A stretch of 64,000 nucleotides of DNA from IMG/VR virus record IMGVR_UViG_3300013125_000002; one strand, written 5' to 3'. This document shows, one piece after another, positions 22,369-28,132 of this stretch. The position numbers and the translations under genes were made by a program. The notes under the pieces are model-generated. The model searched no databases. It saw only the letters and a list, made by a program, of their open reading frames with translations, and had not been told where the DNA came from. This DNA is from a virus. The stretch's first letter is position 1. Each line of letters opens with the position of its first letter.

Positions 22369-23664
22369 CTAGACGAGAACTGCGGACAGAGGAGCTGACA
22401 GAAGGGCGTTGGATTCCACTTGAATGTTGACCACATCTGTGGCTGCACCAACCGCCTGAGTGGTGCAGGTGATCCCAGTGGCGCTCCACTTTGCTGTGGC
22501 AGACGTGCCTGGCTGGTTGGCGGGAAGAGCCTCAAGGCCACCAACATAGACCTTGTTGCCAGCGTAGTTTCCAGCACCACCAGTCATTGGGGCTTCTGCT
22601 TGTGCCACTGTGAAGTTTCCTGCTGCAGCAGAGACTGCCCGGAAGATACCGTCAGTGGCAGCCGCATTGGCGTTGATCAGAGTGGCGATGGCATCATCCG
22701 AAGAGCCTGCAGCACCGATGTCGATGGTGAGCTTACCACCAACGAAAGCAACAGACGCTGCGCCTGCACCCTTGATCATCTCAATGGTGAACCCAGAATC
22801 ACCAGGCTTGAGACAGGTGACAGTGAGGTCGCCACCCAATGCCTCCGTGAGGTGCAGGCTGTCGAAAGTCTGACCTTGCAGAAGGTTCCTTCCGACTAGA
22901 ATGATGTCTCCACCAGCAGCAGCGACAGCCGCTCCACCGGCGACATTGAGCATGTCGAGAATCGGATTCCCCGCTGCAATGATCCCAGCAACTCGAGGAT
23001 CGGTAGTGGTGACGTAGGGGTTTCCGGCTCCTGGAGCACCATTGGTGCCAGCAAGAGCTGCTTTCTCGTCCGTGGTTGGGAGCCGACCATCAGAGTTGGT
23101 CACATACCTGTTGCCGTCTGCAGGAGCACCGTTGGTGCCAGCAAGGGCTGCTTTCTGATCAGCCGATGGGTCGTTGGCATTCGTGTGGTGGTCCGTAGCT
23201 CCAACTCCGCCCAACTCGCTGTGGTTCAGCGTGCCCCAGGCAGCAGTGTTCGGAGCTGTTCCTTTGATCACCTGACCCGCTGCTACACCCGCTGTGGTAT
23301 GGAGGGCACCAACCAACGCATGTGCGGTCAGAGGGTTCACAACCCAAGAGGCATCGTTATAGGTGTAGACGAGATTCTCGTCCTCTACCCACAACAGCAT
23401 GCCTTCGTTGGGCGCTGTGAAAAGCCATGCAGACCCATTCCAGTGGGTGATGTACTTTTCTTTCCCAACCCATGCACCCGTAGCCACGGCTGCGATGATG
23501 TAGCGATCACCAGCAGTCGGAGCGCCTGGGGGTGCGTTCAAGTCCTTGTCCTTGACACTCTCTTGGGCGTCAATCGGGGCCGAAGTTGGCCCCGCGTTCA
23601 TGATGGTCTCAAGGTAAGCCTTTGCTTCCGCCGGCCAGCCCTTTGTGTAGTCATTGAGGTTCAT
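22369..23664 (-). CDS. DUF2793-like virion fibre/decoration protein
   Basis: N-terminal PPGAPTAGDRYII...GAWVG...WNGSAWLFTAPNEGMLLWVEDE fits DUF2793. Internal KAALAGTNGAP duplication. Confidence 0.65.
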   Translation of the reverse strand: MNLNDYTKGWPAEAKAYLETIMNAGPTSAPIDAQESVKDKDLNAPPGAPTAGDRYIIAAVATGAWVGKEKYITHWNGSAWLFTAPNEGMLLWVEDENLVYTYNDASWVVNPLTAHALVGALHTTAGVAAGQVIKGTAPNTAAWGTLNHSELGGVGATDHHTNANDPSADQKAALAGTNGAPADGNRYVTNSDGRLPTTDEKAALAGTNGAPGAGNPYVTTTDPRVAGIIAAGNPILDMLNVAGGAAVAAAGGDIILVGRNLLQGQTFDSLHLTEALGGDLTVTCLKPGDSGFTIEMIKGAGAASVAFVGGKLTIDIGAAGSSDDAIATLINANAAATDGIFRAVSAAAGNFTVAQAEAPMTGGAGNYAGNKVYVGGLEALPANQPGTSATAKWSATGITCTTQAVGAATDVVNIQVESNALLSAPLSAVLV

Positions 23665-23690
23665 GAGTTCTATCCTTTCTGGCCGTCAGA

Positions 23691-24755
23691 TTAGGCCGGC
23701 TTCGTGTAGGCTGCGACCGCGTTGCGGATCGCCTGCAGAGCATCTGCCATGAGCATGCCACCACCACTGCCCCTCGATCCCCCACCAGCATAGGGGCTGC
23801 CAATCCCAAAGGGTTGGGCTGCTGCTGCCGTCAGGTAGCTCGGCACAGAAGCCCCCAATCTGGCCAGGATGATCATGGCTGCGTTGATGAACGAAGGTCC
23901 GTTGGCATAGGGGTTAACCTGTGCAGCTCCTGTACCCTTGCCACCATCGAGAACAGTGATCTCCTTGTCGATCACTGTGTACTCGACAGCGTAGGTGTCT
24001 CCAGTCTTGGGAATCGCCGCAAGCGCACCAGGAGCGAAGTTGAGAAGTGTCACTGTGTTCGAGAGAACGTAAGCAGTGGCGCCCGCCAATGCTGCAGTGA
24101 CATTCCCTGTGAAGGTGACCTTCGCCCCGATGAGGCTATTGTTCGTGGTGAAGGCGCTCGTGTCAGACAGGGCAAGCAGCGAGCAACCGATGTCAACGCA
24201 GTGCGCGTTGTAGAGGGCCTTGATCGCATTGACCAACGTGCAAGCCGTAGCTGTGTCGGTGGCGTCAGCCACAGCCGTCACAGCCTTGGCATCAGCGAAG
24301 CGATGGGTATTCGCCGAGACCTTGATCGCATGAGCGTTGAACTTCGCCTTGAGGTCGTTGGCGAGTGCCACGAGTGAAGCTTCATCAGTGGCGTCAACCA
24401 CTGCGATGGCGTTGGCTGCATCAGCTGCCCAGTGGACGTTACCAGCAACCTTGACTCGGTGAAGCTCATACTTCGCCTTGAGATCATTGGCGAGAGCTTC
24501 TCCCGTTCCTTGATTGGTGGCATCGACCACTGCTGTCTGATCGGCTGCGTCCGCAAGACCATGGATGCCCTGAACGGTCAGACCCGTGGCATCGACAAGC
24601 CCCGTCAGGTTGCGGAGTAGGTCCGCAACACGGTTTCCATCAGGGTAGAGCTTGCCAGCACCTTCGGTGTGCATCGTCGAGTCGGAGTGGGGGAGGATGC
24701 TGTTCTTGAGAGTGAGCAGCTGAGCATCCACGATTGCTGGAATTACGATTGCCAT
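23691..24755 (-). CDS. Putative virion structural protein with three helical His-containing repeats
   Basis: ALANDLKAKYELH / ALANDLKAKFNAH / TLVNAIKALYNAH repeats. AAGGAG RBS. Confidence 0.6.
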   Translation of the reverse strand: MAIVIPAIVDAQLLTLKNSILPHSDSTMHTEGAGKLYPDGNRVADLLRNLTGLVDATGLTVQGIHGLADAADQTAVVDATNQGTGEALANDLKAKYELHRVKVAGNVHWAADAANAIAVVDATDEASLVALANDLKAKFNAHAIKVSANTHRFADAKAVTAVADATDTATACTLVNAIKALYNAHCVDIGCSLLALSDTSAFTTNNSLIGAKVTFTGNVTAALAGATAYVLSNTVTLLNFAPGALAAIPKTGDTYAVEYTVIDKEITVLDGGKGTGAAQVNPYANGPSFINAAMIILARLGASVPSYLTAAAAQPFGIGSPYAGGGSRGSGGGMLMADALQAIRNAVAAYTKPA

Positions 24756-24807
24756 ATCCGTTCTCCTTGTCTAGGTCGCTACAAAGGCAGCGTACCTAAT
24801 ACTTGTT

Positions 24808-24837
24808 CTAAGCCGCCTCCAAAACAGGTAGCTGGAG
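24808..24837 (-). pseudogene. Orphaned duplicate of the tail sheath 3' end (LQLPVLEAA-stop)
   Basis: ctc cag cta cct gtt ttg gag gcg gct tag encodes the same nine residues plus stop as 25526-25555. Confidence 0.85.
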
Positions 24838-24845
24838 CTGCGTTC

Positions 24846-25460
24846 TTATCGAATTGGAGTGGTCAGAATCTTTTCGGTCGGCCACCCCACGTGGTAGCGC
24901 AGGTACAGAGTGCTGTGACTCACACCAAGTTCTTTTGCCCACTCCATGATCGTTTTGGTTTCTTCTTGGAATGTTAGTTTGATGTTGTTTCGTTTGTTGC
25001 GTTGTTGAATCATAGGCAAAACCCAATGGCAATTCTTGGGCTCGTAGTGACCCCCGTTGTCCTTCCGATCTATCTGATGCCGAGAGGATGGGCGAGGACC
25101 CATATCCTCTAAAAAAGCCTCGAAGCTGTTTTGCCAACGCCGACACATCTTGACCCCACGTCCACCATAGTTTTCGTAGGACGGATGGGATGGAACTAGA
25201 CAACGCAGTTTGATCCCTCTCCAGATGTTGTACACCTCCGTTCCGGTTTGCCCATGTGTGCCGTGCAATCCACCTTTGATCTTGGAAGAGCACGAGGCAC
25301 ACTGGGTTGATCCTCCGGCCCGAAGATTGTCTCCCATTACCACAACTTCGTTTCCACATTCGCATCGACACTGGAAAGCTCGTTTATTGTTTCGCTTCTC
25401 AACTTCCTTCAGGACCAACCATTTACCGAATTGTCTCCCAACCATCTCAATCTTGAGCAA
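24846..25460 (-). mobile_element. Free-standing HNH homing endonuclease
   Basis: CRCECG...CASC, YNIWRGIKLRC, YGGRG, IDRKDNGGHYEPKNCHW...QQRN. More AT-rich than the flanks. TTG start with AGGAGG. Confidence 0.85.
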
Positions 25461-25464
25461 GATG

Positions 25465-25492
25465 AACCTCCTAGTATATTAACTAGGAGGTT
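25465..25492 (-). promoter_or_regulatory. Perfect 11-bp hairpin sequestering the HNH Shine-Dalgarno
   Basis: mRNA reads AACCUCCUAGU-uaauau-ACUAGGAGGUU. The 3' arm contains the AGGAGG that lies 6 nt before the TTG start. Confidence 0.8.
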
Positions 25493-25525
25493 ATCCTATT
25501 TCAGTTCAATCTGGCAACCTTTTGA

Positions 25526-28132
25526 TTATGCAGCCTCCAACACTGGCAATTGCAGATAAATATCGTTGAGCTGGAAGTTGATCCCAACCACTGGGAAGAC
25601 TTGTACCCGAATGGTCGCGATGTCTCCACTGATCTTGACTCTCAGGTTGTAGAAAGCATGGAGAATCTGACCACTGACTTCGTCCAAGCTGTCCACAATG
25701 ATGCTCTCTGTGCGGCACCTCTCGAGGAACTCCGCAGCACAGTCCTTGATCGCAGTCACGTTCGCTGGCTTGGCCTTGCGTCCTGTGAATCGATCTTCCA
25801 AGTACTTGCGAAGGCCATACGAAACGTAGCGAACCACGTCTCGCACACTGCCTTCTGCATAGGCCAAGTTGTCATCAACGATGTAGGTAGTGAGATCACG
25901 AACGAACCGGTAGCCCTTGCCCTCATTGCTCTCGGCGAAGAGCACACCGTTTTCGATCATCTTGTTGGCATCGGTGACTTCAACAGGGTCCCATCCCGAA
26001 TCCTGTTCGAGGCTGATCGCGTTGATGTACTTGTGGGTGAGTGGCTCCCCAACCTCATCCATGCCCGACCGCATGCCAGCAGCGACAACTGCCAACGACC
26101 ACTCGTCGAAGACAGTCAAGTCTCCGTCCACATTCAGAGCCTGCACACGCTGACCGCAGAGCTGAACATCGGGGTTGTTGAAGGCATTGGCTTGAGCAAC
26201 GATCTGAGCAATCGTGCCCTTCATGCCCATGTACCCACCACGTTCACTCTTGCCAGCTCCATTGCAGTAATCCACATGAGCTGCCAGTTGTGCTGCTACC
26301 GAAGCGAATGTGGCTGTGGAACCATACCCCTCAGAGCTGAGGTCTTGGCAGATCAGAGGAACCACGTGGTTCACTCGGGTCTGAGCCAGCTTGTCGAGAC
26401 CATCCTGCCAGTTGGTGTTGCTGCTGATGCCTCTCGTTCCCCCTGCGAGATACTTGAAGGTGTCACCAATGGTGCCTGGCACACCCGTTCCGAGACCGGT
26501 ATATTCTGGCTTTCCGCTGCCAGTTCCCGCACCACCACTCGTGCAACGGGTCACCGTCACATACTCATTGCGGTTGTTGATGTCGTCGAGAATGATCTGT
26601 GCATCCCGGCGGAAATGGTTCACCCATTTCGTCTGTGGGTCAGTCGGTGGGTAAGCAGGGGTTGACTCAGCAGTGCGCTCCTGGCGCAGCTCAACAGCTG
26701 TCGAACCTGCATCGAAGTCGAAGCTGGTCATCAAGATCGCACTGTTCACCCCATTCGGGACGTAGGCCCGATAGTTGGGGTTGGCATTGATCGTATTGAC
26801 CAGATCCAAGATCGATGTTCTTGGGGTGAAGGTGATGTCAAGATCAGTTGCAGCCAGGCCACCATTCACTGCCACACTCGTCTGGAACTTGGTGGCCTTG
26901 CCTGCCGATCCAGTCACAGTTCCAGTTGCTGTGGTCACATACCGCAGCTGATAGACCGAAGTTGCATCGGGCTGAGTCGTCCAGTTCTTGCTGACCGTGA
27001 CAACCGAATTCACAGCTGCTGTATTGGCTGTGATGATCCTTCTCTGGCCAGCACCAGTGCCACTGGTGATCGCCACAACCAAGCCGATAAGCTCGTTGAC
27101 AGCGAAGTTGCGAGAGTTTGCACCTACGGCTGCTAGTGTGATCGTAGCAGCTGCCCCCGCAGTGGCAGTTCCAGTGGCAACCATGCCTCTCAGAACCGAA
27201 TACGTCAGAGCTCCACCAGGAGCGCCTTGCCAGGCTCCAACATTGATCTTGGTTTCAGTGTTGCTATCGATCTTGCGGAGGTTCTTCGATGCCCAAACAC
27301 CATCCGTCGCCTCAACGAAATAGCCCTTGAGGGCATCCACACCCCAAGCCTTGCCAGCATCGGTCAGAGACGTTCCGTCTTGTGCAGTCGAAGTTCCGCT
27401 GTCCACAACCACCTGTTGTGACTGGCCGACGTACTCGACATCAAGGAACGAAGTAGAACCAAGATCGTCACTGAACTGGTTCTTCGATCCAAAGATCGTT
27501 GTCCAGGACGAACCAGCTGTGCTGCCCTTTTCGAACTCTTGCTTCACCCAGTTCCCTTGAGTCCCGTACTTCTTGGACTTGAAAAGGAACTGAGGTGCCA
27601 AGATCTGTACAGTAGTCCCAATCAAAGGAGCTGCTGTAAACGCAGGAGAGACTGTCACACTTGCCGCTCCATTGGCAGTGATTGAGCGCTCTTCAGTTCC
27701 GATACGGAGGGTGTTACCAACATGGACACTGGCAACCAGTCCTCCCGTGGTCAGGTTGATCACAGTATCGGTCGAACCAGCAGCCGCTGTGTCCTGAACC
27801 TGCCGAGCCAGCATTGTGAGGGATGCTTGCGTGCCCTGGTTGACACGTACTGCCTTGACCCGAAAGGCACCACCAGGCACACGTGGGTCCTTGCTGGGGT
27901 CGAAAGCAAGACCTACTGCGTCTGCTAGAGGCCCACCCTGAAGCTGGGTCTTGGCAAGAGCAGGGTCGTCGATGGTGATGATGACTCCTGGCTGGCCATC
28001 CTCTGCCTCACCGACAAGGCCCACAATCGCATTGCTGAGCAGGCCAATCTGGGCAAGGGCATCAGCATTGACCCTGGTGATCCCACCGGGCCGGAACATG
28101 GTCTGACCGTTGAACGTCACTGAACGAGACAT
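25526..28132 (-). CDS. Contractile tail sheath protein with inserted domains
   Basis: 868 aa. FNGQTMFRPG...VGLVGEAEDGQPG N-terminus. GEPLTHK, GYRFVRDLTTY and C-terminal PVVGINF are sheath motifs. Confidence 0.92.
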   Translation of the reverse strand: MSRSVTFNGQTMFRPGGITRVNADALAQIGLLSNAIVGLVGEAEDGQPGVIITIDDPALAKTQLQGGPLADAVGLAFDPSKDPRVPGGAFRVKAVRVNQGTQASLTMLARQVQDTAAAGSTDTVINLTTGGLVASVHVGNTLRIGTEERSITANGAASVTVSPAFTAAPLIGTTVQILAPQFLFKSKKYGTQGNWVKQEFEKGSTAGSSWTTIFGSKNQFSDDLGSTSFLDVEYVGQSQQVVVDSGTSTAQDGTSLTDAGKAWGVDALKGYFVEATDGVWASKNLRKIDSNTETKINVGAWQGAPGGALTYSVLRGMVATGTATAGAAATITLAAVGANSRNFAVNELIGLVVAITSGTGAGQRRIITANTAAVNSVVTVSKNWTTQPDATSVYQLRYVTTATGTVTGSAGKATKFQTSVAVNGGLAATDLDITFTPRTSILDLVNTINANPNYRAYVPNGVNSAILMTSFDFDAGSTAVELRQERTAESTPAYPPTDPQTKWVNHFRRDAQIILDDINNRNEYVTVTRCTSGGAGTGSGKPEYTGLGTGVPGTIGDTFKYLAGGTRGISSNTNWQDGLDKLAQTRVNHVVPLICQDLSSEGYGSTATFASVAAQLAAHVDYCNGAGKSERGGYMGMKGTIAQIVAQANAFNNPDVQLCGQRVQALNVDGDLTVFDEWSLAVVAAGMRSGMDEVGEPLTHKYINAISLEQDSGWDPVEVTDANKMIENGVLFAESNEGKGYRFVRDLTTYIVDDNLAYAEGSVRDVVRYVSYGLRKYLEDRFTGRKAKPANVTAIKDCAAEFLERCRTESIIVDSLDEVSGQILHAFYNLRVKISGDIATIRVQVFPVVGINFQLNDIYLQLPVLEAA

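Follow-up and report, generated by a model that had tools for sequence, protein, structure and literature searches.

A free-standing HNH-family nuclease gene between two copies of the end of a phage tail-sheath gene: a probable end-replacing homing cassette

When the end of an essential gene is encoded twice, once on either side of a nuclease gene, it has to be asked which of the two ends is native and how the other one arrived. This question is raised by IMG/VR virus record IMGVR_UViG_3300013125_000002, a phage sequence of 64,000 nucleotides (nt) that is referred to below as the window, meaning the whole stretch of DNA that was analysed. In the window, a tail-sheath gene is followed by the open reading frame (ORF) of a putative HNH-family nuclease, and the last sheath codons are found both at the end of the sheath ORF (the in-gene end) and just beyond the nuclease stop codon (the orphan end). 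A sequence-only reading of this DNA had proposed that a homing element without an intron supplied the sheath gene with a replacement 3' end and left the old end behind, and the relatives of the window support this proposal. We estimate a probability of about 85% that the locus holds a free-standing homing-endonuclease cassette of an 'end-replacing' type inside the last sheath codons. This reading is carried by the architecture itself, by the presence or absence of the cassette among near-identical genomes, by a sister locus in which the orphan end equals the nuclease-free allele and the in-gene end is a recoded patch of 30 nt, and by stages of decay, fusion and loss.

The duplicated sheath end in the window is real and not due to chance. 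As had been claimed, the peptide LQLPVLEAA followed by a stop codon is encoded at 25526-25555 and again at 24808-24837, and a recount agrees that the two copies differ at 9 of 30 nt and in 8 of 10 codons, every difference being silent. The probability that nine random substitutions would all be silent is 5e-7. Moreover, when both strands of the 64-kb window were checked, this was the only repeated peptide of the '8 residues plus stop' kind. All window features of the cassette region lie on the minus strand; the orphan end is located 8 nt past the nuclease stop and 52 nt ahead of the ATG of the next gene (23691..24755), which is the native distance from that gene. The shortness of the repeat (30 nt) is the only point in favour of a chance resemblance or an assembly artefact, an explanation whose probability is negligible given the figure for all-silent differences, the uniqueness of the repeat in the window and the recurrence of the same layout in independent assemblies from different samples. 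The AT-rich codons that had been remarked ahead of the in-gene copy are indeed present, but they are a weak sign, being three codons without a close relative for comparison, and a comparison of the codon usage of the two end copies was uninformative.

To place the locus among its relatives, we used profile scans of IMG/VR and JGI metagenomes, which yielded 66 non-identical loci that include the sheath end (designated by L and a number), whereas a scan of IMG/VR with the single protein gave no match. The sheath has 199 detectable homologues in metagenomes, and at their C-termini a motif that is strongly conserved precedes four or five residues that vary. In about 54 of the 66 loci the sheath stop is followed by a spacer of 12-65 nt with a ribosome site and then by the next gene, the sheath end being single and without a second copy. 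The single end with a short spacer is the ancestral state. Six further lineages (L004, L016, L019, L057, L074 and L099; seven lineages when the window is included) have a nuclease homologue directly 3' of the sheath gene. These nucleases are 40-63% identical to that of the window (62% in L057), and in all six lineages a second copy of the sheath end is found at the nuclease stop. The cassette is present or absent at one and the same site among near-identical genomes, namely in L004 as compared with L001-3 (97% identity on both flanks) and in L057 as compared with L123 and L052.

The decisive comparison is the latter one. L057 carries the same cassette at the same site as the window, and its nuclease-free relatives L123 (98% nt identity) and L052 (95.6%) have a single sheath end each. 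From the orphan end of L057 through the spacer and into the next gene (its first 40 nt), the sequence does not differ from the L123 and L052 alleles. In contrast, the in-gene end of L057 differs from these alleles by 8 silent third-position changes located at -30 to -3 from the stop, with zero mismatches from -228 to -31. Since the orphan is identical to the empty alleles and the silent patch is sharply bounded, the orphan is the native end in L057, and the in-gene end has been imported or replaced and silently respelled, with a sharp 30-nt boundary. The expectation that nuclease-free relatives match the orphan copy therefore holds in this sister locus; the window itself has no relative above 71% nt identity. 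A separate observation in L057 concerns the homologue of the 354-amino-acid (aa) gene that follows the cassette: at L057:3151-3265 (codons ~13-50) there are 17 mismatches in 115 nt relative to L123 and L052. This patch is preceded by 78 identical nt and followed by a much less diverged stretch, and it is sharply bounded and not contiguous with the cassette.

Other lineages fit the same pattern at the level of amino acids. The in-gene end of L074 reads TQSA and its orphan TQAA, as does the end of its cassette-free relative L091, and the in-gene end of L016, whose nuclease is the closest relative of that of L074, is also TQSA. The orphans of L082 and L019 retain the residues that are typical of their relatives or of the family consensus, from which the in-gene ends deviate, and the orphan of L013 has diagnostic codons, as well as the spacer after it, in common with cassette-free L078. 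The shared TQSA of L074 and L016, together with the orphans that match their kin (L074, L082, L019 and L013), implies that the replacement end travels together with the nuclease gene.

Several observations weigh against this reading, and they concern the window itself, the nuclease protein and duplications without a nuclease. The window is without a close cassette-free relative, and by analogy with L057 its orphan is read as the native end. In addition, no consistent nucleotide signature parts 'native' from 'imported' ends across the lineages, and the in-gene spelling of the window resembles the native spelling of L123. Resistance to the nuclease by recoding alone is therefore not evident, and it may be a split target or lineage-specific recognition, more than recoding as such, that protects the carrier.

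As to the nuclease, the 204-aa protein did not match any Pfam HNH model (E up to 0.01), had no sequence match in PDB, i.e. to any solved structure, and gave no informative NCBIfam match. A Foldseek search with its AlphaFold2 (AF2) model found nothing at E up to 0.001, I-HmuI appearing only at E 1.3. The candidate catalytic His128 is kept in the sheath-associated nucleases and in L040 and L082, but it is replaced in the other five distant members of the family. Because Pfam, the PDB sequence search and Foldseek give nothing, the 'HNH' assignment is likely but not proven. The points in its favour, besides the PHROG match (Table 1), are structural. In the AF2 model (predicted local distance difference test, pLDDT, 87), residues 65-159, in the central domain, are best matched by the HNH restriction enzyme PacI (3m7k_A; Z 6.4, root-mean-square deviation 3.3, 80 aligned residues, VIA-align). 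This likens the protein to HNH nucleases of the PacI / I-HmuI type, from which it differs in the middling Z score and in being without a sequence-level match to solved structures; among phage genes, PacI-like HNH nucleases form an established class (PMC12724721). The N-terminal domain of the model is zinc-ribbon/SH3-like and the C-terminus helix-turn-helix-like, and the family alignment shows no variation at N143 and N155 and very little at D131. The G+C content of the nuclease gene is 49%, as against 55-58% in its neighbours. The sheath-end nucleases cluster in the nuclease tree (2 changes; 2 of 500 shuffles were as low), although the tree is poorly resolved and a single origin is neither shown nor excluded by it.

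The remaining observation on this side is that four lineages (L001-3, L007/L013, L062 and L082) carry an in-gene and an orphan end 8-16 nt apart with no nuclease between them. Such pairs would be expected if a tandem copy of the sheath end had arisen first, through slippage or some other event in which the nuclease had no part, with the nuclease landing between the copies later and the silent differences being due to drift. However, drift cannot account for L057, where the orphan equals the cassette-free kin but 8 of the 30 nt of the in-gene end are changed, within a sharp boundary and over a background divergence of 1.6%. Furthermore, the in-gene ends of L074 and L082 differ from their kin in amino acids, the in-gene end of L001 equals the cassette end of L004 over 21 nt, and L070 holds a partly deleted nuclease between its two copies. 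We consider this order of events improbable.

The sequence-only reading had itself named nuclease-free relatives that carry the duplication and match the in-gene copy as a finding that would speak against it. Such relatives do occur, since L001-3 match the in-gene copy of L004, but they are better explained as scars of nuclease loss. L001 and the nuclease-bearing L004 are 97% identical on both flanks and share the in-gene end, whereas their orphans differ; the scar orphans match nuclease-free kin. The duplicated nuclease-free state is rare and derived, given the single end in about 54 of 66 loci. L070, the nearest relative of the window, has at L070:6878-7010 a spacer of 133 nt that encodes the last 14 nuclease residues (11 of 14 identical to those of the window), followed by a decayed orphan, and it appears to be an intermediate stage of nuclease loss. 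Because of the match between L001 and L004, the rarity of the duplicated state and the stub in L070, we read the four nuclease-free two-end lineages as probable nuclease-loss scars. A truncated-looking nuclease homologue was also noticed in L082 (L082:7526-8065), 1.2 kb downstream of the sheath gene and past the next gene; the sheath end of L082 is itself a nuclease-free two-copy scar.

The fate of the orphan differs among the carriers. It is intact in L057 and L099, as in the window, it overlaps the nuclease ORF in L019, and it has decayed in L004 and L016. In L074 the nuclease ORF (L074:6992-7645) reads through into the orphan, so that the last five codons and the stop (…PTQAA-stop) form the C-terminus of the nuclease; in this lineage the nuclease gene has incorporated the relic. 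The orphan could be thought to be kept for a function of its own, by providing expression signals for the next gene or an obligatory recombination arm, rather than to be a passive relic. Its intactness and native position in the window, L057 and L099 agree with this, and in the model of the WHO elements of yeast the downstream fragment is a recombination site (PMC7282813). However, the decay of the orphan in L004, L016 and L070, its absorption in L074 and its overlap in L019 imply that its coding sense is dispensable, and the next gene with its spacer already provides a homology arm. A function that retains the orphan is thus very improbable.

The end-replacing arrangement is not general to the nuclease family. 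Among the more distant nuclease homologues, 12 from IMG/VR (15 in a stricter end-peptide test) and 6 from cultured phages were examined for flanking duplicates, and none that was convincing came to light. The local peptide alignment score of the window flanks was 48, compared with 22-37 for the flanks of most other members; the score of 46 in L040 looks like chance.

The cassette leader of the window (65 nt, 25461-25525) includes a hairpin that pairs the Shine-Dalgarno sequence of the nuclease gene (Table 1). Equivalent hairpins of different sequence are present in L004, L057, L074, L016 and L099, i.e. in six lineages including the window. A hairpin over the ribosome site is known to limit the translation of I-TevI, segB and mobE in T4-type phages (PMC2988022). 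The nuclease is an ORF of its own outside any intron or intein, with its Shine-Dalgarno sequence and TTG start inside the hairpin. If the cassette were an intron, of group I or similar, that is spliced out and joins the sheath body to the downstream copy, its removal would restore the native frame in L057. However, an Rfam scan of 23500-27000 at E up to 1 matched no intron model and gave only a chance match to nadA, the non-coding parts of the cassette amount to just 65 nt and 8 nt, and splicing is unnecessary when an in-frame replacement end with its own stop is provided. The probability of an intron is accordingly close to nil. A group I intron was also considered as a candidate class and rejected, as the ribozyme core that flanks the ORF in such introns was not found in the same Rfam scan.

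Table 1. Features of the sheath-end cassette and its surroundings in the window
Feature	Coordinates	Strand	Remarks
Tail-sheath gene, whole ORF	25526..28132	minus	868 aa; PF04984 1.2e-07, phrog_279 8.6e-46
Sheath gene body	25556..28132	minus	PF04984, phrog_279; 199 homologues with conserved C-terminal motif
In-gene sheath end, LQLPVLEAA + taa	25526-25555	minus	read as the cassette-borne replacement end, by analogy with L057
Hairpin pairing the Shine-Dalgarno sequence AGGAGG (25467-25472) and reaching the nuclease TTG start	25458..25498	minus	-23.7 kcal/mol, z -3.9
Free-standing HNH-family (PacI-like) putative homing endonuclease	24846..25460	minus	204 aa; phrog_374 'HNH endonuclease' 4.1e-63
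8-nt junction, nuclease stop to orphan end	24838..24845	minus	
Orphan sheath end, LQLPVLEAA + tag	24808-24837	minus	read as the displaced native 3' end
Native spacer from sheath to next gene, with ribosome binding site	24756..24807	minus	spacers of relatives here 12-65 nt
Downstream tail-module gene, right-hand homology arm	23691..24755	minus	354 aa

Taken together, these features suggest how such a cassette might move. The mobile unit would comprise a replacement gene end (8-13 sheath codons and a stop), a short leader with a hairpin that hides the ribosome binding site, and the HNH-family nuclease ORF. In the window the unit would lie within the last nine codons of the sheath gene, so that the imported copy now closes the sheath ORF, while the native end has been left just 3' of the nuclease gene, where it remains joined to the spacer and gene that originally followed it. 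When a carrier and a cassette-free phage infect the same cell, the nuclease would cut or nick the native sheath end of the latter, and repair would copy the cassette from the donor; the sheath body would serve as the left arm, and the right arm would be made up of the orphan end and the next gene. The imported end would keep the essential sheath gene whole and, together with the split target, would make the carrier immune, and its different spelling would lower the loss of the cassette through recombination between the repeats. Both the cleavage at the sheath 3' end and the resistance of the recoded end are predictions, and the 30-nt recoded patch in L057 is the only hint at a nuclease footprint.

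The phage and the remaining genes of this region can be described briefly. A DNA search of the window against cultured phages gave no match, the best cultured relatives of the sheath are about 30% identical, and three other contigs encode an identical sheath protein. The 354-aa gene at 23691-24755 sits between the sheath and tube genes and matched no Pfam, PHROG or NCBIfam family; among the relatives its N-terminus and C-terminal half are conserved and the middle is variable in length (233 aa in L013). An alternative frame of 187 codons (24808..25371, minus strand), which overlaps the nuclease gene and ends in the orphan, was dismissed as chance, the equivalent frame being closed after 5-33 codons in L004, L019 and L099.

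Among the closest known parallels are the WHO elements of the yeast FBA1 gene, whose mobile unit consists of an endonuclease gene preceded by a 3' end for the gene that is targeted (Coughlan et al. 2020, PMC7282813). It was shown experimentally that with every WHO integration FBA1 acquires a new end, and that the previous one is displaced downstream and decays there; the cleavage is allele-specific and FBA1 evolves as a chimera (PMC7282813). The layout and the proposed steps of the window cassette are alike. However, WHO elements have intein-like LAGLIDADG/zinc-finger nucleases, reside in a nuclear genome, replace about 400 nt and home in meiosis, whereas the window element is of the HNH family, belongs to a phage and would replace only 8-13 codons. 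Gene hybrids with mobile ORFs have also been described in fungal mitochondria, for atp6 of Allomyces (Paquin et al. 1994), for atp6, atp9, cox2 and nad3 of Glomus (PMC3630166) and for cob and atp6 (PMC6279837). In these hybrids an inserted in-frame C-terminus is followed by the endonuclease ORF and then by the native C-terminus, and the native copy matches close relatives while the inserted copy is diverged in nucleotides and conserved as protein (PMC3630166, PMC6279837). The order of the ends and the nuclease ORF is the same as in the window. The layout of a complete host gene, a nuclease ORF and a displaced gene end is found in the window, L057, L099, L019, L074 and L004, and a displaced end like that of element-free relatives beside a diverged in-gene end is seen in L057 against L123 and L052, in L013 against L078 and in L074 against L091. 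Unlike the window nuclease, the mitochondrial ones are of the GIY-YIG or LAGLIDADG type, are often fused in frame to the host gene and belong to organellar genomes.

In phages, Aeh1 mobE is an example of a homing gene that splits a gene in two. The free-standing nuclease genes of T4-type phages sit between genes or split a gene, whereas the window cassette lies inside coding sequence, for which it brings a new 3' end; what they have in common is a stand-alone gene beside a conserved gene, a sporadic distribution among related phages and a hairpin over the ribosome site. SegB, SegF, SegG and MobE of this group spread by 'intronless homing' in mixed infections, with co-conversion of the flanks (PMC2988022), and this review of T4-type homing contains no word beginning with 'duplicat'. 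A full-text search of the open-access literature found no phage paper with the present layout. By design logic, the element also resembles the synthetic home-and-rescue drive HomeR, in which an essential gene is cut and a recoded, cut-resistant copy of its end serves as the rescue (PMC7968924). HomeR is engineered, Cas9-based and used in Drosophila, and the resemblance is an analogy only.

The principle of end replacement is thus already established in yeast and in fungal mitochondria, and the advance made here is one of scope and documentation, not of kind. The window element is a phage, HNH-family form of a known kind of homing element, and its life cycle is documented with unusual completeness: the relatives cover every step from the empty site through the intact cassette and the decaying orphan to the nuclease stub and the scar, a series that is rarely seen in full. 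Tentatively, and as a possibility rather than an expectation, serial end replacement by such cassettes could drive the variability of the last four or five sheath residues (TQAA, SQAA, RQAA, TQSA, RLAA, VLEAA and others), with the two-end scars acting as resistance alleles that immunise phage populations. If so, metagenomes would preserve every stage in the life cycle of a naturally occurring 'home-and-rescue' drive that acts upon an essential gene of the virion. The 30-nt recoded patch of L057 provides a specific candidate for the recognition site. Annotators can take a short 'orphan' gene end beside an HNH gene as a useful sign of such an element and as a warning that the adjacent gene end is chimeric. 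For the biology of these phages, the locus indicates that a selfish nuclease that brings along a tiny replacement gene end can settle within an essential virion coding sequence and needs neither intron nor intein to do so.

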